IMG/VR virus record: IMGVR_UViG_2568526411_000004
From: a virus
Taxonomy: Duplodnaviria; Heunggongvirae; Uroviricota; Caudoviricetes
DNA: 64,000 nt
Direction: 5' to 3' (one strand)
The notes under the pieces were generated by a model. It had not been told where the DNA came from. It ran no database searches and saw only the letters and a list, made by a program, of their open reading frames with translations. Below, one piece after another: positions 40,599 to 53,834 of the stretch (position 1 is the first letter of the stretch; each line of letters opens with the position of its first letter). A program made the translations under genes and the position numbers.

Positions 40599-42095
40599 TT
40601 ATTTATCGGACTTGGGTAAGAAAGCTTTTAACTGCTCCATGCCATTAGGTTCTGCGTTTAACTTGGCTACAAGCTCTTTGACAAAGTACTTCTTGCCATC
40701 TGTCCATGTAACACGAGGCTTGTTGTATTCAATCCAACCGCGCTTAATTAAATGATCAAGCATAGCGGCGATATGATCGAAGTAAGCCACATCAAATTCG
40801 TTGTACATCATGCGTAAATTGCACTCTTGGAACGGTCGAGTGAATTTTGTTTTGACGCATTGAACGGTAATGTTTTGGCCCACAAATTCCTTTTCACCAA
40901 CTTCGTCTTTGTCCATGATTTTTTGACGACCTAAAGCCAAGCGTGCAGAAGCGTAAAACTCCATTGCTTTTCCGCCTGGTGTGCAGTTGTGAACAATGAA
41001 GCCATTGTCTTTGTTGCCCGCAAGGAAGTTGTGATTGCCCTCAATGGTAATGTCATACATGCGGGTGTCTAACTTCTTACCGCCTTCGCGAACCTCTGTG
41101 ACGACAGCATAGGCGGTTTTGTGCTTATGAGTAACAAGGTGATAGCCAACCTTCACATCCTCTGCGTTAATCCAGCCACACTCGCGAGTAAGAATTTTGT
41201 GATCGTTTGTTGCTGTAACCGCAGATACGCCATTCTTCGTTTCAGGTGTAGTTGCTCGAATGTGAATCCAACGCTTGTCGGTATCAGCGATAGAGCCATT
41301 GTCATGCCAATCAACGATAAATTTAGGCTCAATTTCACCTGTTGTTTCGTTGTATGACCACACTTCCTTGTTGATCTTGTTCTTAACGATTTCCTTGATT
41401 GTTGCAGTTGTGCCATCAACAAAGGGAATTTGAACGTCACCACGTAAACAGCGAGGATCACCAAACATAACACCCGGCTTTAAGCGCATTTGGTTGAGAT
41501 ATACGAATGTCGCGCTAAACTCTTCAGCTCGGTGACTCATGGTTTTTAACGTAGAAGACGTTACACGAGCCAGCGCCGTAGTGTCATTCATGGTGTATTC
41601 ATCAATTTCTTTGCCAGCTTGCGATTTAGGTAATGCAGCAGCAATAGAGTCAAATACAACTAAAATTGGCGCATCATCAGGAATAGCTTTAGATGCACGA
41701 ATTAACTGGCACGCTTTAGCGGCAAGTGTGTTTCCTTCCTCCCATGTTGCAGGCTTCGCGTAAATCCAATATGGACGCTGTGTGTTAAGACCGAACCCTT
41801 CAGCCAAACGAACATCGAAAGAGCGTTCCCAGTCAATGAAGATTGCACAGCCACCCATTTTCTGAGCGCGAACCATCCATTCAGTAGCGTCAGCAGTTTT
41901 ACCAGTAGATGATTCGCCAAATACTTCAACCATTCGACCAAATGGCAAACCGCCTTCGTAGCTTCCTGAAATAATGCGGTTTAATTCAGGGTTGCCCGTA
42001 TCAATCCAACGAGTGACCGCTTGTTCTGCATGGTTATCACCGATTGCTTTGAATAATGCGTCATTTAGTGCGTCGATTTGTGCTTGTGCTGTCAT
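40599..42095 (-). CDS. RecA-like recombinase (UvsX/RecA family) interrupted by a mini-intein
   Basis: Walker A GESSTGKT and RecA-like FVYLNQMRLKPGVMFGDPR | intein | CTPGGKAMEFYASARL. The start is the ATG at 42095 (MTAQAQ). Confidence 0.8.
   Translation of the reverse strand: MTAQAQIDALNDALFKAIGDNHAEQAVTRWIDTGNPELNRIISGSYEGGLPFGRMVEVFGESSTGKTADATEWMVRAQKMGGCAIFIDWERSFDVRLAEGFGLNTQRPYWIYAKPATWEEGNTLAAKACQLIRASKAIPDDAPILVVFDSIAAALPKSQAGKEIDEYTMNDTTALARVTSSTLKTMSHRAEEFSATFVYLNQMRLKPGVMFGDPRCLRGDVQIPFVDGTTATIKEIVKNKINKEVWSYNETTGEIEPKFIVDWHDNGSIADTDKRWIHIRATTPETKNGVSAVTATNDHKILTRECGWINAEDVKVGYHLVTHKHKTAYAVVTEVREGGKKLDTRMYDITIEGNHNFLAGNKDNGFIVHNCTPGGKAMEFYASARLALGRQKIMDKDEVGEKEFVGQNITVQCVKTKFTRPFQECNLRMMYNEFDVAYFDHIAAMLDHLIKRGWIEYNKPRVTWTDGKKYFVKELVAKLNAEPNGMEQLKAFLPKSDK
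40986..41450 (-). other. 155-aa mini-intein (Hint domain, no endonuclease domain) within the RecA-like gene
   Basis: It begins CLRGD after ...FGDPR and ends ...FIVHN before +1 Cys (CTPGG). Removing it restores a RecA-like FGDPRCTPGG core. Confidence 0.7.
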
Positions 42096-45455: not shown

Positions 45456-48400
45456 TCAACTTAATACTTCAGCCACTTTTTCAAAGGCTAAAGTAAGGTC
45501 TGGTAATTTTGAAGGGTCAAACGGTAATTGAGCTGGACTAATCCCGCATACGATTGTTGCATCAAGCGTTGGGTCATAAACCGCTGTAGCATTCAGTTCT
45601 GATATTCCACCTTTAACCGACGGTAAGAACTTTTTGGCCACCGAAGATCCTAGCGCAACAATAATGCTCGGTTTTACGAGTTTTATCTCTTCTTCCAAGT
45701 ACTTACTACAGTTGTTAATCTGCGAGTTAGTAAGAAACTTATCTGATTTACGCGCTTTCACCATAGTTGTGTAATAACCATCACTAGGATTTAAGCCAGC
45801 GTCTTTAATTGCCTGTTTAAGATAAGTTGAGACATCACCGACCATAAGTTTGTCTTGTTTGTCCTCATCGACGTTAGGACAATCTGTGACAACCATAAAC
45901 TTAACTTTGTTACCACAGCGCATAGTAGGGTGCTTTTTACCTTTCAAATCACAAGCGTCACACTGTTTGTATTCTTGAGCCACCATAATGATGCGACTCT
46001 TTAAATGCTGCTCGGTTAGATCAGCAACACGGTCAGCTTTTACAGTATCAATGATAATGCCGGGCAATAAGTCCATTTGAGCCTTGCGACGGTCGACGTG
46101 TCGTGCAGGTAATTGAGTAGGCTCAACACTCGCTAAAGCGCCAATTGCATTAAGCGATTCAACCACTTTGCTGTTTACCTTTGTTTTAGGCTGTGCTGCT
46201 GCTTCTTGGAACTCAAAGAGACTATCAAAACGTTTTTTAATTGGCGCATCGTCGTCATAGCCCCAAACGGGTGTTTTGTCGCGTTTATACTTAACAATCT
46301 TCAAGTCACGATGCTTTTCGCGTAATTTCACAATAGCGCGCGCCGTTGTCTCTGACACACCCTTTACAGCGTTAAAAGGTGCAAGAATGTTGTGATTGTC
46401 TAAAATGGTGTAACGATCAGAAGATAAGTTAATATCGGGCGGCAATACTTCGATACCGCATTCGCGCGCATCCTTTACCAACCCCTTCAATTTGTCTTCG
46501 TCTACGATTGATAAAGAGGCTGCGAAATACTCAGCAGGGTAGTGGACACGAACGTATGCACACCATACCGAGATAATCGAATAAGCCGTTGCGTGACTTT
46601 TGTTGAAACCATAGCCAGCAAAGGCTTCGATCTTGTCAAAGATGCGACCGGCTTCTCCTGGTTCTACTCCTGATTTAGCAACGGCGCCATCAATGAACTT
46701 TTGACGCATTTTAGCCATTTCATCTACATTCTTTTTACCCATTGCTTTACGGAGTTTATCCGCTTCAGCATTTGTAAAACCTGCAAAATCCACAGAGACT
46801 TTCATTACCTGTTCTTGATAGATTATGACGCCTAGCGTGTCTTTGAGTGCTTCAACCATATTAGGATGATCGTAACTTACTGAACGCATACCCTGACGCG
46901 TAGCAACATAATCATCTAAAAGTCCTGAATCCATCGGACCCGGACGATACAACGCGGTTGCAGCTGAAATATCATCAAAGGTCATTGAACCGCCTTTCGC
47001 AATATCTTTAAGCAGCTGCTTCATGCCTCCTGATTCAAACTGGAACACGCCCGTAGTATTACCGTTTGCGAAAGCTTGCAATGTTTTTGGGTCATCTAAT
47101 GGAATTTCTAAGTAATTTAGATAAATACCATGACGTTCTTTAATATAATCACGGGCGATATTCAGCGTATCTAAAGTGGACAAACCGAGTAAGTCCATTT
47201 TGACCAAACCGCAATCTTCTACAACGCGTTTATCCCAATTGACCACAGTGTCTTCAGATCTTCGCTCTAATACAGCGCGATTCACAATCGGCTCACCTGC
47301 AACAACAATACCGGCAGCGTGTTGGCCAAATGACTTCATTGTGCCTGCAAGTTTGACCGCGTGCTTCCAGATCTCAGGATGTGCTTTTTTAAATTTCTCT
47401 AATTCAGGAACCGCTTTAGCTGACTCTTCCAAAGACATTGTTTGGCCATGATCTTTGAGTACGAATTTTGAAGCTGTGAGTTCAAGAGGTGTTAAACCAC
47501 TTAGACGACCAACATCACGTAGCGCTGACGCAGAGGCTAAGGTCGAATAGTTGGAAATACCCGCTACGTAGTCTTTACCGTATTTATCAATCAAATACTC
47601 AACGACCTTATGACGACGTGAAGAGGCAAAGTCCAAGTCAGCATCGGGTAAGTCTAAACGTTCAGGGTTAATAAAACGCTCAAAGATCAAACCGAATCGA
47701 ATTGGATCGACGTCGGCAATACCGATTAGATACGCAACAAGTGAACCATTAACCGAACCACGTCCCGGACCTACAATCACACCATTGTTTTTCGCCCATG
47801 TAACAAGGTCTTCAACCATAAGGAAGTAAGATTCAAAACCCATGTTTTTAAGCGTTTTTAACTCATAGCCTAAGCGTTCTTTGTAAACGGTATCGAGTAA
47901 ATTTTTAGGTGGCAAATAGCCTAAGACGGGCTTGCTAAAACGTTTTTTCCAACCCTCAACGCATAACTCGCACAACTTCTTAAACTCATCATTAGCGAGT
48001 TTAGGCAATGAAACTGGTTGTTTTTCAAACTTGTACTGGCACTTTTGCACTACTTCTTCGCAGTTCTTAATGCCATTTGTCCAAATTGCAGTTACCGATT
48101 TAGGGTCAAGTACAGTGCGATTAAACTTAATTCCGCGTGCAATAGCAGCTTTAGTGCGGTCTATGATTGCGCTAGGCTCTACAAATGCAAATTCCTTAAC
48201 ATACTGACGACTGCGAAAAGGTGCATCTAACTGCGTGTTACTCGCAATGGCACTCATCACATCCATCGTACTAGCGTCTGCATTATCTAAGTAGCGGAAA
48301 GGGTAGGTGACAAGTGGCTTGCAGCCCAATGAGCCAACCAGCTCGATTGCGCGCTTATTCATTTTGTCGAAAAGGGGAGTGTTTATAGGGCAAAGTTCCG

Positions 48401-48911
48401 CATAGAAATCTTCACCAAAACGCGCTTTGAGTTGACGAGCTATATTTTCATAGTCTGGATGACTACACATACCGAACATATCGCCTGTAGATATGATGAC
48501 GTCTTCTAACTCAAGCAAGTCTTTTAAACACGAGCGTGGATTGTAATAAAAGCGCTCTGGAGTATTTGCTTCGGTCAATAGCCTAAGCAGCCCTTTGAAT
48601 CCAACCTCAGTCTTCGCGTAAACCTTACAGATAAACGACAGATTTTCTTTAGGAATCTCTTGAGATTGTTTTGTAGGTCGACGGTAGGTAGGGTCGTCAT
48701 AAACACGTACACGCACGCCAGCAATTGGTTTTATGCCTTCTTTCTCAGCTTTGTAAGTGAACTGAATTAACGCATGCACGCTCATATCATCCACTAAAGC
48801 CACCGATTGATAACCCAACTCCTTCGCTTTCTCAATGATATGATCAACTTGAAGCATTGACTGACCAATCGAGAAGTCCGACTGTACGGAAAGGGCATGA
48901 TTAATATTCAT
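45456..48911 (-). CDS. dnaE: DNA polymerase III alpha-like (DnaE, PHP N-terminus) with C-terminal UDG-fold domain
   Basis: 1151 aa with a PHP N-terminus and polIII alpha core motifs. The C-terminal ~190 aa resemble a family-4 UDG with a degenerate GExPG motif. Confidence 0.85.
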   Translation of the reverse strand: MNINHALSVQSDFSIGQSMLQVDHIIEKAKELGYQSVALVDDMSVHALIQFTYKAEKEGIKPIAGVRVRVYDDPTYRRPTKQSQEIPKENLSFICKVYAKTEVGFKGLLRLLTEANTPERFYYNPRSCLKDLLELEDVIISTGDMFGMCSHPDYENIARQLKARFGEDFYAELCPINTPLFDKMNKRAIELVGSLGCKPLVTYPFRYLDNADASTMDVMSAIASNTQLDAPFRSRQYVKEFAFVEPSAIIDRTKAAIARGIKFNRTVLDPKSVTAIWTNGIKNCEEVVQKCQYKFEKQPVSLPKLANDEFKKLCELCVEGWKKRFSKPVLGYLPPKNLLDTVYKERLGYELKTLKNMGFESYFLMVEDLVTWAKNNGVIVGPGRGSVNGSLVAYLIGIADVDPIRFGLIFERFINPERLDLPDADLDFASSRRHKVVEYLIDKYGKDYVAGISNYSTLASASALRDVGRLSGLTPLELTASKFVLKDHGQTMSLEESAKAVPELEKFKKAHPEIWKHAVKLAGTMKSFGQHAAGIVVAGEPIVNRAVLERRSEDTVVNWDKRVVEDCGLVKMDLLGLSTLDTLNIARDYIKERHGIYLNYLEIPLDDPKTLQAFANGNTTGVFQFESGGMKQLLKDIAKGGSMTFDDISAATALYRPGPMDSGLLDDYVATRQGMRSVSYDHPNMVEALKDTLGVIIYQEQVMKVSVDFAGFTNAEADKLRKAMGKKNVDEMAKMRQKFIDGAVAKSGVEPGEAGRIFDKIEAFAGYGFNKSHATAYSIISVWCAYVRVHYPAEYFAASLSIVDEDKLKGLVKDARECGIEVLPPDINLSSDRYTILDNHNILAPFNAVKGVSETTARAIVKLREKHRDLKIVKYKRDKTPVWGYDDDAPIKKRFDSLFEFQEAAAQPKTKVNSKVVESLNAIGALASVEPTQLPARHVDRRKAQMDLLPGIIIDTVKADRVADLTEQHLKSRIIMVAQEYKQCDACDLKGKKHPTMRCGNKVKFMVVTDCPNVDEDKQDKLMVGDVSTYLKQAIKDAGLNPSDGYYTTMVKARKSDKFLTNSQINNCSKYLEEEIKLVKPSIIVALGSSVAKKFLPSVKGGISELNATAVYDPTLDATIVCGISPAQLPFDPSKLPDLTLAFEKVAEVLS

Positions 48912-48942
48912 TACATTCCTTTAGCAATTTAATAAGTAAAAA

Positions 48943-50420: not shown

Positions 50421-51620
50421 TTACCCGAACACTCGCTGCGCAATTCCCTTCACAATTTCGTAATCGCGGGAAGATTGTTTGTTGGCATAAGCTAAAGAGA
50501 TACCCGTATTCATAGAGCCGCGCATCACACCTAATTTCGCCGCATAGATTAGAGAGCGCAAAGAAATCGTATCGCTAATTTCTTTATTGCTATAAGCAGC
50601 GCGCACCTTAGTTGCAAACTCAACTAGATTTTTCGCATCTATTGGGTCAATTTGTGTGTGACGTACAATGGCTTTTGCTTCATCTTCTTTAGACATGTAA
50701 TGCTTTTCCATCACCATGCCAAAGCGGTCATAGTTCGCCGTGTTTTGAATGGTTGTTCCTGAATACAAACCTGTTTCATCACCCGTACCATTGGTGTTAC
50801 CCGTCGCACAGAAGCGGAAATTTGGATGAGGTTTGATAATGCGATTTTCAGGGTCAGCTTCTTTAATGTTGAGCGGCTTACCTTCCATAACAGCTTGATA
50901 AACAGACAATACACTTGGCTGCGCAAAGTCATATTCGTCAGCAAGATATAACCAGCCATGCTTCATCGCTAACGCCAACGGCCCAAGTTGGAAAGTCATG
51001 TTTCCATCAACTACAGTCCACATGCCGACGATATGTGCTTCTTCTGTATTGGCGGTGTGCTGAATACGAACGACTGGTCGACCAGTTCTTGCAGCCACCT
51101 GATCAATAAGTTCTGTTTTACCAGTACCTTTGTGGCCCCAAACATAAAAAGGAATATTCAGTTCAAGCGCGATAAGGGTATTTTTCAACACATCAATTTC
51201 AAAAACGTATGTGTTGTTAATTTCAGGCACCATGTCTGGTGATGATGAGTTCTCAATACAAGATACTGGGATTGGATCACCCTGTGCGTTTTTACCTTCT
51301 GGGCCAGAGATTTCAAAAATTTCATGTAAATTACGCGCAACTAAGGTGTCTTTAGCGACGAACGAACCCGGCTTTTGAATTACCGAACTTGGTTGAGCTG
51401 GCTGAGCTGCCGCTTGTTCTTGAGCCTTTTTCTTCTGCTCTTCCGCTTTCATTCTGATGCGCTCGATTAAAGCTGGCGATTGGGTCGGTGCATTAGGATA
51501 AGAAGATTTATAATTCTCAAAAGTCACCTTTGGGTGATCAGTATTAAGGTGATGAGGTATAGAATGCACTTGAGCTTTACAAATTTCGCATGCGATTGTT
51601 TCATTTTGATTTACAGTCAT
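50421..51620 (-). CDS. MoxR/CobS-like AAA+ ATPase
   Basis: Walker A GHKGTGKT and Walker B LYLADEYDF. Confidence 0.7.
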   Translation of the reverse strand: MTVNQNETIACEICKAQVHSIPHHLNTDHPKVTFENYKSSYPNAPTQSPALIERIRMKAEEQKKKAQEQAAAQPAQPSSVIQKPGSFVAKDTLVARNLHEIFEISGPEGKNAQGDPIPVSCIENSSSPDMVPEINNTYVFEIDVLKNTLIALELNIPFYVWGHKGTGKTELIDQVAARTGRPVVRIQHTANTEEAHIVGMWTVVDGNMTFQLGPLALAMKHGWLYLADEYDFAQPSVLSVYQAVMEGKPLNIKEADPENRIIKPHPNFRFCATGNTNGTGDETGLYSGTTIQNTANYDRFGMVMEKHYMSKEDEAKAIVRHTQIDPIDAKNLVEFATKVRAAYSNKEISDTISLRSLIYAAKLGVMRGSMNTGISLAYANKQSSRDYEIVKGIAQRVFG

Positions 51621-51705
51621 TTTTTAAATCTCACAAAGATAGATTTTGACAAAACTTTGTCTTTTGAATATGCGTGAATGATACTAATATCTTCTAGGAA
51701 AAGAT

Positions 51706-51719
51706 AGTCAGTACTGACT
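51706..51719. promoter_or_regulatory. palindromic operator AGTCAGTACTGACT
   Basis: Perfect palindrome. Confidence 0.65.
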
Positions 51720-51759
51720 GATTATTTAAATAACCCCAACTGACTATCTTGCTCACGAA

Positions 51760-53817
51760 TTACTTGAGAAGTAATGAGCGAAGCTCGCCAATAACCGTGT
51801 TAGGTAAGTCGGCAACAGATCTCAAAACGACATTTTTTGGATAGAACTCTTTTACGCTTTGCGTATTGATTCCAATTCCAATAACTTCAAATCCTGAGCG
51901 AGAAATTTCCTGAACGGTTGTTTTGAGGTGTTTGTTTAGCGTTGGGGTCGGGCCGCTACCATTTGGATTACCATCACTTAACACCATAATGATTTTCCGT
52001 GCTTCTTTTTGAGCGCTTAGCCGCTGTGCCGCAATTTGAAGACACTCCCCATCAACATTCGTGTTTAAGAACCTAACATGAGGCAACCATGCAAAACGAT
52101 GGCGGTTTTCGAGCGTTAAGCGCTCATTAAACCCTTTAATGACTGGCATATATAAACCTTCCGTTCTTGTGTATCGAATCGTTTTGCCATTATGCGTAAA
52201 GCTTTCTTTTGCGTGTGGATCACCGTTTTTAGTTGTGAATCCAATAACTTCATGATTAATGTTGAGACGGTCAAGAACAGATGACATTGCATATGACGCT
52301 TGAGAGGCTGTGTTAATGCGTTCGCCCTTCATTGAACCTGAACAGTCAATTAAGAGGGTTACAGCGACATCTTTGGAACGATTCTCTTGTTTGCGACGGA
52401 ATATACGGTCGTCTCTAACAGCTAAACGAGAAAGTGACGCCTGGTTAATTTTTCCTTGCCGTAAACCGTTCTCCCATGTTCTTGCTGATCGAGCAACCAT
52501 AAGACGTTCCAAATCTTTTTGAATTGTTCCCGTAATTTTATTGGTTGCTCTATCTAAATCATCCATAAAGGACGATTTGTAATTTCTGCCAATTTTTAAT
52601 GTTTCGATAACGTCATATCTGTTTGTATAAACGAGATATGGCGCAGTGCAAGCAAAGTCTTTTGCTTCATTGCTTAACTGAACGGCAAACGAGGCGTCAA
52701 AATCATTCGCTGACTCCTTGTCGATCTCTTGCAAAATCGCCTTAGCGTCTAAATTAAGCTTTCTTAATTCCTTTTTCTTTTCTGACGTCTGATTCTCAGA
52801 GTCGCTAGACTCGTTGCCTTCATTGCTGTCGCCCTTACCATTCGATTTGTCAGACTTATTTTGGTGGCGCTCACTTTTACCATCTGATTCGTTCCCACCA
52901 TCCTCATCTTCGGATTGACCGCCTTTACCTCCATCACCTTGTTCGTCTTGCTCATCAGCATCGCCTGAAGACTCACCGGCACCATCTTCTTCAGAATCGC
53001 CATCATCTCCCTCACCAGCGCCTTGCTGACCGTCTGCATCTGAACCTTCATCTTCGTCAGAATTTCCGCCACCTGAGCCGCCTGGTTGCTCATCTTCATC
53101 TTCGTTAGATTGACCATTTCCTTGTTGATCACATTCTTCTTCCTGTTGTTGATCTTGCGGGGGTTGTTTCTCGTCTTCGGGACTTTTTAGAGCTTTGTAA
53201 ATTTCTTTAGCTAAGCGAACGGCATCCTGAGACGACTGCATTGATTGAAGTTGTGGCGCAAGGTGTTTGATGGCAGCATGAATATTTGGCAACAAATGAA
53301 TCTTGTCGCGCATATAAATTTCAAAAGTTGATTGACCCGAAAGGCTGCGGAGATATGGAGTGGCCAAGATACCCATAATCTTTGTTTCATCAACATCGGG
53401 ATGCGCCATAACTTCTTTAAATTTCGGAGTAATCATCTCTTCTAAAAAGAAGTGTGCGGTGTGATCTAAGTTAGAACCAGAACCTCTAAATTTTTCAGCC
53501 ATGCATTTTTCGATGCGGGCGTCTTCTAAAATATTTGCGAGACTTTTTAAAAGGTAATCGCCAACGCTATTTAGGGCTTTAAAATCAGAGAAAAGAACAT
53601 GTGCAACCTCATGATCTAAGAATCCCTGTATTGCTCTTATAAGTTCTTCTGATGCATTGTCCGAAAGGTACGGTAAATTGATAGAAATCGGATTTCCATT
53701 AATGTCAGACTTGACGTATGCTTCCATACCTATTTGAGTTACTTCAATTTTTTTCTCAATGAGAGCATTTGTGATTGCAACGATAGCGTTGCGTAAATTA
53801 GCAATGCGATTGTTCAT
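51760..53817 (-). CDS. CobT-like vWA-domain protein with long acidic/Gly-rich low-complexity insert
   Basis: vWA MIDAS LLIDCSGSM; central D/E/G/S-rich region. Confidence 0.65.
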   Translation of the reverse strand: MNNRIANLRNAIVAITNALIEKKIEVTQIGMEAYVKSDINGNPISINLPYLSDNASEELIRAIQGFLDHEVAHVLFSDFKALNSVGDYLLKSLANILEDARIEKCMAEKFRGSGSNLDHTAHFFLEEMITPKFKEVMAHPDVDETKIMGILATPYLRSLSGQSTFEIYMRDKIHLLPNIHAAIKHLAPQLQSMQSSQDAVRLAKEIYKALKSPEDEKQPPQDQQQEEECDQQGNGQSNEDEDEQPGGSGGGNSDEDEGSDADGQQGAGEGDDGDSEEDGAGESSGDADEQDEQGDGGKGGQSEDEDGGNESDGKSERHQNKSDKSNGKGDSNEGNESSDSENQTSEKKKELRKLNLDAKAILQEIDKESANDFDASFAVQLSNEAKDFACTAPYLVYTNRYDVIETLKIGRNYKSSFMDDLDRATNKITGTIQKDLERLMVARSARTWENGLRQGKINQASLSRLAVRDDRIFRRKQENRSKDVAVTLLIDCSGSMKGERINTASQASYAMSSVLDRLNINHEVIGFTTKNGDPHAKESFTHNGKTIRYTRTEGLYMPVIKGFNERLTLENRHRFAWLPHVRFLNTNVDGECLQIAAQRLSAQKEARKIIMVLSDGNPNGSGPTPTLNKHLKTTVQEISRSGFEVIGIGINTQSVKEFYPKNVVLRSVADLPNTVIGELRSLLLK

Positions 53818-53834
53818 AATAGATCCTTAGCGAT

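Follow-up and report, generated by a model that had tools for sequence, protein, structure and literature searches.

The RecA-like recombinase gene in IMG/VR virus record IMGVR_UViG_2568526411_000004 (Caudoviricetes), from which a stretch of 64,000 nucleotides was analyzed (hereafter, the window), is interrupted by a segment of 155 codons. This locus raises the question of whether the segment is an intein, how it came to be so short, and how it is related to the inteins of other RecA-family proteins. Our analysis indicates that it is very probably a genuine class-1 mini-intein, inserted in frame in the DNA-binding loop L2 of a recombinase from an Acinetobacter baumannii phage-plasmid-like element; on the evidence of sequence comparison and structure modeling, it is predicted to splice and to descend from a homing intein.

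The recombinase gene, as defined by the open reading frame (ORF) list, Pfam, PHROG, and RefSeq, occupies window positions 40599-42095 on the minus strand, stop codon included, with its ATG at 42093-42095 and its stop codon at 40599-40601; all of the features described below lie on the same strand. It encodes a precursor of 498 aa (55.9 kDa) that matched Pfam RecA (2.9e-38) and PHROG 97 'UvsX-like recombinase' (1.5e-82), and the RefSeq name of the same coding sequence is 'recombinase' (WP_000126617.1). Translation of positions 40986-41450 gave 155 in-frame codons that begin with CLRGDVQIPF and end with NKDNGFIVHN, flanked by KPGVMFGDPR and CTPGGKAMEF. An earlier note on this DNA had placed a 155-aa insert running from CLRGD to FIVHN, and followed by Cys, in the RecA-like gene, and its coordinates were exact. 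The insert has a mass of 17.5 kDa and corresponds to precursor residues 216-370. Loop L2 is divided between the exteins, as judged from the translation and the alignment to E. coli RecA: the N-extein (residues 1-215; 41451-42095), which ends in KPGVMFGDPR, contains its first half as well as the Walker A motif, and the C-extein (residues 371-498; 40602-40985), which starts with CTPGGKAMEFYAS, contains its second half together with the C-terminal part of RecA.

The isolated 155-aa stretch scored 41.4 bits against Pfam Intein_splicing (PF14890; gathering score 35.8), with 155 of 155 profile positions covered, and 32.5 bits against NCBIfam intein_Cterm (cut-off 15.6). The top matches in a sequence search of the PDB were mini-inteins only, namely Npu DnaB (3e-6), MJ0781, Spl DnaX, and the Mtu RecA mini-intein. 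The class-1 residues were complete: Cys1 of block A (41448-41450), the TxxH motif T81-N-D-H84 of block B (41199-41210), Y132-D133 of block F (41052-41057), the penultimate His and terminal Asn of block G (H154-N155; 40986-40991), and the +1 nucleophile Cys, which is the first residue of the C-extein (40983-40985). The splicing residues were invariant across the family alignment; Cys1 was invariant in alignments A1 and A2, T81 and H84 together with Cys1 in 18 relatives, and the residues of blocks F and G were likewise unchanged. An AlphaFold2 model of the insert, built on 18 relatives, was all-beta, with a predicted local distance difference test (pLDDT) score of 94.3 and a predicted template modeling (pTM) score of 0.88. 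Foldseek comparison of this model with the PDB returned intein splicing domains for all of the top 20 matches, with template modeling (TM) scores of up to 0.87; the best was the splicing domain of the Mtu RecA intein (0.77-0.87), followed by the Ssp DnaB, NrdJ-1, and Npu DnaB inteins. The intein reading of the earlier note was thus borne out by the Pfam profile, the predicted HINT fold, and the residues of blocks A, B, F, and G. Assignment of the insert as a class-1 intein is supported by every sequence and fold criterion testable here. A class 3 intein, which has no position-1 nucleophile and is marked by a Trp-Cys-Thr motif and a block F Cys, was considered and rejected; Cys1 is present, and block F is Y-D without a Cys.

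Removal of the insert restored a gap-free alignment to E. coli RecA (nqmrlkpgvmfgdpr-ctpggkamefyas versus nqirmkigvmfgnpe-tttggnalkfyas), in agreement with the proposal that excision would regenerate a canonical RecA segment, FGDPR/CTPGG. With the numbering anchored on K72, the junction is equivalent to E207/T208 of E. coli RecA. Loop L2 of RecA comprises residues 195-209. The insert had been described as lying in the ATP-binding core next to the conserved RecA loop; the association with the loop was correct, but the site lies within the DNA-binding loop L2 and not beside it. An uninterrupted allele was found in the syntenic locus L006, where the 343-aa recombinase P0011 reads FGDPRTTPGG and the extein DNA is 81-83% identical to that of the window. 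Since a contiguous, intein-free allele exists in a syntenic relative, the segment is an insertion and not a native domain. Sorting the best 120 homologues by length gave 74 intein-free alleles, 41 with a full-length intein, and five with a mini-intein. All of the junctions checked were in L2, most of them of the form GDP[RT]/C...HN/CTPGG and a few at V201/M202, and no homologue with a contiguous non-intein insertion was found. The intein-free alleles have Thr at the position of the +1 Cys (equivalent to E. coli T208), and the spliced recombinase would therefore carry a Thr-to-Cys change in its DNA-pairing loop. The +1 Cys and Cys1 are also two catalytic cysteines that could form a disulfide.

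The short length of the insert is explained by comparison with its relatives at the same site. The relative P0003 (locus L005), for example, has an intein of 355 aa, of which the window copy retains the first 111 and the last 44 residues. The gap between the two is 200 residues or 600 nt, is in frame, and spans a stretch with two LAGLIDADG-like motifs; the region absent from the window copy is Pfam LAGLIDADG_2 in the relatives. A Pfam scan of the 155-aa insert gave no match to an endonuclease family, so that the description of a mini-intein without a homing endonuclease domain was confirmed. Protein and DNA alignments to the full-length allele placed the deletion scar at K111/T112 (41115-41120), between strands 104-109 and 111-122 of the AlphaFold2 model, which was confident across the scar. 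We also looked for a free-standing or second endonuclease; the neighboring small ORFs had no Pfam match, and no other ORF in the window matched intein or LAGLIDADG sequences. The helicase, ribonucleotide reductase, ligase, and Pol III alpha genes of the window were examined for further inteins, and none was found.

Four other natural mini-inteins of 157-165 aa (P0002, P0005, P0006, and P0010) were present in the family. Their deletion ends are ...KALTG/LTETTY in P0002, THKHK/LPDEPECLTE... in P0005, KMLT/RANESV in P0006, and ...RNVFA/RANEAV in P0010, compared with THKHK/TAYAVV in the window copy. As the five mini-inteins have different deletion end-points, the endonuclease domain must have been lost at least three and up to five separate times. 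Each loss rejoins at the same point of the splicing domain.

On this basis, a 155-residue HINT domain would divide L2 in the newly translated 55.9-kDa precursor. Splicing would begin with an N-S acyl shift at Cys1, and the resulting thioester would be attacked by Cys+1; cyclization of Asn155 would then free the 17.5-kDa intein, and an S-N shift would link Arg215 to Cys371, giving a 38.5-kDa recombinase with the intact loop FGDPRCTPGG. We infer that the precursor splices and is inactive until spliced. The mini-intein itself appears to have been derived from a 355-aa homing intein with a double-LAGLIDADG endonuclease by the in-frame 600-nt deletion. Because the endonuclease domain is deleted, the window copy can no longer home by itself, and it is presumably inherited along with the plasmid. 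It would be kept competent for splicing because precise excision at the protein level alone yields a working recombinase.

The pattern of substitution is in accordance with this proposal. Averaged over the whole divergence, the ratio of nonsynonymous to synonymous substitution rates (dN/dS) of the intein was 0.07, 0.11, and 0.10 for the window copy against P0003, P0005, and P0002, respectively, at synonymous divergences (dS) of 0.63, 0.37, and 0.92. These values indicate that the splicing domain is under purifying selection, as expected if splicing is needed. For the extein, dN/dS was 0.06 against the intein-free allele P0011, indicating that the extein is constrained as well. Synonymous differences between the exteins of the window and those of P0003, P0005, and P0002 were 0.74-0.84 and thus saturated, and dN between the exteins of the window and P0005 was 0.22. 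At the DNA level, the window and L005 are 87-88% identical in the intein and 69% identical in the extein, and among the loci compared (L005:6001-8124, L060:151-1725, and L006:6001-7032) the extein of the window was closest to an intein-free allele. As the intein is much less diverged than the host genes, it appears to be much younger than their divergence and to have been transferred horizontally by homing between diverged recombinase alleles. A co-conversion tract beside the site was also sought but could not be demonstrated; flank identity was only slightly raised, in a loop that is conserved anyway.

Several observations weigh against a functional class-1 mini-intein. The insert scored 22.7 bits against NCBIfam intein_Nterm, slightly under the cut-off of 24.5; the window lineage, with at least 99% identity, is too uniform to give a measure of constraint after the deletion alone, since dN/dS averages the whole divergence; and for the related M. 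leprae RecA intein splicing has been reported in mycobacterial hosts only, with none in E. coli (review PMC5874633), so that splicing may depend on the host. If HINT activity had been lost with the endonuclease, the insert would be a splicing-dead relic, and the recombinase either dead or tolerant of 155 extra residues in L2. Endonuclease-domain deletions can impair splicing until they are compensated, as is generally known from engineered mini-inteins, and in a nearly clonal lineage a recent decay would not show yet. However, the catalytic residues are all intact and invariant, the low intein dN/dS (0.07-0.11) includes a pair consisting of two mini-inteins, the extein ORF is intact and constrained (dN/dS 0.06), the structure model is confident across the scar, and four other natural mini-inteins of similar size (157-165 aa) occur in the family. 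Moreover, L2 is the DNA-pairing loop of RecA, in which a permanent 17-kDa insert is unlikely to be tolerated. Loss of splicing is therefore a quite improbable explanation. We give hardly any weight to a still more improbable reading, in which the insert would be a Hint domain other than an intein, such as a bacterial intein-like (BIL) domain, or else a domain native to this recombinase family and specific to its lineage. BIL domains are Hint domains found in proteins that are variable and not conserved, and they usually lack a +1 nucleophile and ligation activity. A weak Pfam PT-HINT match (24.4 bits, under threshold) and the presence of BIL structures lower in the list of fold matches point in that direction, but the enzyme is conserved, and highly so at the insertion site; the insert carries Cys1 and His-Asn and is followed by Cys+1, its best matches are true inteins, and contiguous alleles without it occur in syntenic loci.

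Two other explanations accept an active mini-intein and concern the reason for its persistence. The intein may have been kept as a conditional switch because its splicing answers a cue such as redox state, through a Cys1-Cys+1 disulfide, or single-stranded DNA. Documented precedents for conditional splicing are the Pho RadA intein (PMC4513877) and the DnaB inteins of mycobacteria (PMC8529194), both nucleophiles here are Cys in contrast to the Thr found at +1 in intein-free alleles, and the site lies in the loop that binds single-stranded DNA. However, the coexistence of free, full-length, and mini alleles and the discordant histories of intein and extein fit a selfish homing cycle without benefit to the host, and a switch appears unlikely. 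It is also unlikely that the mini-intein has remained mobile, whether because a LAGLIDADG endonuclease encoded by full-length relatives acts on it in trans or because co-resident phage-plasmids undergo ordinary recombination. The mini-inteins of the window and P0005 are close to each other (dS 0.37) and share their left deletion end (...THKHK), their exteins are very diverged (dN 0.22, synonymous sites saturated), and plasmids of A. baumannii often carry full-length alleles (112 records in PLSDB). On the other hand, the right deletion ends of these two mini-inteins differ, the data would be accounted for just as well if closely related full-length parents had homed first and had then been shortened independently, and the full-length alleles of A. 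baumannii share only about 54% identity with the P0003-type intein that is closest to the window copy. A splicing-competent descendant of a homing intein, now inherited with its plasmid, is the reading that we prefer.

The element that carries the gene was identified by its flanking sequence. A 10-kb region around the gene matched 27 PLSDB plasmids of A. baumannii (105-114 kb) at 99% identity or more; all of these plasmids are typed as non-mobilizable, and the identical protein is recorded on at least 1000 contigs. A megablast search of the recombinase gene against a phage collection gave no match, and the element was found among plasmids. In PLSDB, 140 plasmids have an intein of this family, 138 of them from Acinetobacter; 112 have a full-length copy and 27 a mini-intein. 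The replication and recombination module of the window encodes Pol III alpha with a C-terminal UDG domain, a gp32-like single-stranded DNA-binding protein, a 5'-3' exonuclease, and the recombinase, as well as Mre11- and Rad50-like proteins, ribonucleotide reductase, thymidylate synthase, ligase, and helicase. Judged from this gene content and the plasmid matches, the host element is an A. baumannii plasmid with a phage-type replication module and is phage-plasmid-like. The nearest phage exteins were those of SSU5-like Klebsiella and Salmonella phage-plasmids and Pseudomonas phage nickie. The NCBIfam equivalog for bacterial RecA proper (TIGR02012) scored the host protein at 134 bits against a cut-off of 325, and this assignment was rejected. 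By its profile matches, the host protein is a phage-type RecA-like recombinase within a phage replication module and is distinct from chromosomal recA. The DnaE-like Pol III alpha gene (45459-48920, minus strand) has its UDG-superfamily domain at residues 1005-1136 (Pfam UDG, 1.3e-11), and this polymerase-UDG fusion is common to the relatives L005 and L006. Genes for a CobT-like (VWA) protein and a 'porphyrin biosynthesis'/ATPase-like protein (50424-53826, minus strand) also lie inside the module.

The five RadA/RecA insertion points defined by Topilina et al. 2015 (NAR 43:6631, PMC4513877), named a to e, are treated there, as far as the RecA sites are concerned, as independent invasions. Our comparisons revealed homology between full-length inteins of site d, the site of the window insert, and inteins at other L2 positions; it extends over their whole length and includes the endonuclease. 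Identity reached 37% (E = 4e-72) between site-d inteins and the site-b inteins of jumbo phages (Erwinia phage pEa_SNUABM_17) and was 28% (E = 6e-28) between site-d inteins and those at V201/M202; the site-d allele P0003 was 25% identical over 383 columns (E = 9e-22) to the site-b RecA intein of Mycobacterium (M. barrassiae), and both LAGLIDADG motifs were included. Among RecA-family inteins, those at the P-loop and at KFY/C had no detectable kinship to the site-d family. The UvsX-like recombinases of Erwinia phage pEa_SNUABM_17 (L001:2083-5658) and Yersinia phage fHe-Yen9-02 (L002:2125-5628), of about 1170-1190 aa, contain two inteins each, one at site b (VMFG/C...HN/SPE) and a second, unrelated one at ALKFY/C...SHN/S.

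A search with a profile of the family retrieved 669 clusters at E <= 1e-30 among 1.84 billion representatives; the distant members are for the most part metagenome proteins. Contigs were also scanned for RecA loci with a generic block-F pattern, which returned many unrelated cyanobacterial inteins, and the top RecA loci alone were used. About 170 inteins with placeable junctions, comprising profile matches and close homologues, were mapped to E. coli numbering by alignment to E. coli RecA. The +1 residue fell at position 205 in 90 inteins and at 208 in 54; it was found at 202 in 14, at 209 in four, at 201 and at 207 in three each, and at 204 and at 211 in one each. At least five staggered positions in L2 are thus well supported for the family, and inclusion of single examples brings the number to as many as eight. 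Members of this staggered set include P0033, P0040, P0121, P0143, P0217, P0229, P0250, L001:2083-5658, and L010:1501-2592. When inteins at different positions were compared, the closest pairs of sites gave best identities of 41-51%, at least as high as the median within positions (34-41%), and a neighbor-joining tree of the family inteins, calculated without support values, needed at least 15 changes of position.

Homology over the full length indicates that a single intein family occupies the sites named b and d in the literature. Whether the inteins of site d and the M. leprae-type inteins of site b are a single LAGLIDADG lineage that has repeatedly shifted its insertion point within the L2 codons, and not the products of independent invasions, is a question on which we regard the chances as even. 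Inteins that occupy separate sites in the same protein are, by the usual rule, unrelated; if such shifts are real, insertion points can evolve locally, contrary to that rule. In a few proteins without apparent resemblance to RecA, possibly ligase-like ones (P0194, P0212, P0221, and P0225), inteins of the same family are inserted after a K-x-[DH]-G motif, which suggests occasional jumps to other host genes. As a few members are found in such proteins, some of the L2 positions could be re-invasions and not local shifts. Literature searches for inteins in L2 or the DNA-binding loop, or inserted a few residues apart, returned nothing relevant.

The intein call itself is correct but ordinary, as the element was catalogued in 2015, and by itself it adds nothing to the field. 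Its practical value is in annotation, the RefSeq label being merely 'recombinase', and the 'A. baumannii RecA' intein of the literature belongs to a gene of a phage-like plasmid and not to chromosomal recA. The family offers a compact natural example of the homing cycle; its syntenic elements carry empty alleles, full-length ones, and several that were shortened independently. What is added here is the evidence for at least three separate losses of the endonuclease, the signal of horizontal transfer, and the full-length homology of site-d and site-b inteins across staggered L2 positions. If confirmed with a supported phylogeny, the staggered positions would show how an intein shifts its site and would provide a set of natural mini-inteins working in slightly different extein contexts.

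The closest known system is one that has been listed before. Table 1 of Topilina et al. 2015 (PMC4513877) gives two A. baumannii entries, ABNIH1 F9IG70 and IS-143 K1ED71, both as d (216-370). These entries share with the window the species, the length class of the host protein, and the coordinates 216-370, which correspond to 155 aa, and on these three properties the window intein is almost certainly the element listed there. Since the coordinates equal 'd (216-370)' of PMC4513877, the intein was already known and is not a discovery, and the name 'intein C-terminal splicing region domain protein' is already attached to some near-identical database entries. In contrast to our analysis, that report gives the listing alone, without the location on a phage-like plasmid, the full-length LAGLIDADG alleles at the site, or the kinship to site-b inteins, and our literature search found no paper that discusses the A. 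baumannii site-d RecA intein beyond this listing. The RecA of Escherichia phage Cyrano (L003:1483-3822) has a 422-aa intein at the P-loop (GPPSAGK/C...SHN/T; residues 65-486), and 'E. coli RecA c2 (65-486)' entries with the same coordinates are listed in PMC4513877. The 'first E. coli inteins' of that study are therefore probably genes of SSU5-like phage-plasmids and not chromosomal recA.

Three other systems share part of the properties of the window intein. The M. leprae-type site-b intein of RecA (206-570; full-length LAGLIDADG) is homologous to the site-d inteins over its full length and also lies in loop L2; however, it is inserted three codons upstream (G204/N205 with a +1 Ser, versus E207/T208 with a +1 Cys), it has kept its endonuclease, and its host is a chromosomal bacterial RecA and not a phage-type recombinase. 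The splicing domain of the M. tuberculosis RecA intein, known from engineered mini-inteins (PDB 2IN0, 3IFJ, and 3IGD), was the best structural match (TM 0.77-0.87, 25-28% identity) and likewise consists of the HINT domain of about 140 aa that is left in a RecA host after removal of the endonuclease; it differs in that it occupies site a (residue 252), results from a laboratory deletion and not a natural one, and is only weakly similar in sequence. The Pyrococcus horikoshii RadA intein, the precursor of which is inactive until spliced and serves as a model for conditional splicing (PMC4513877), is, like the window intein, a natural mini-intein in a RecA-family recombinase, although it is inserted at the P-loop site c1 of an archaeal host and, from its weak matches, belongs to an unrelated intein lineage.

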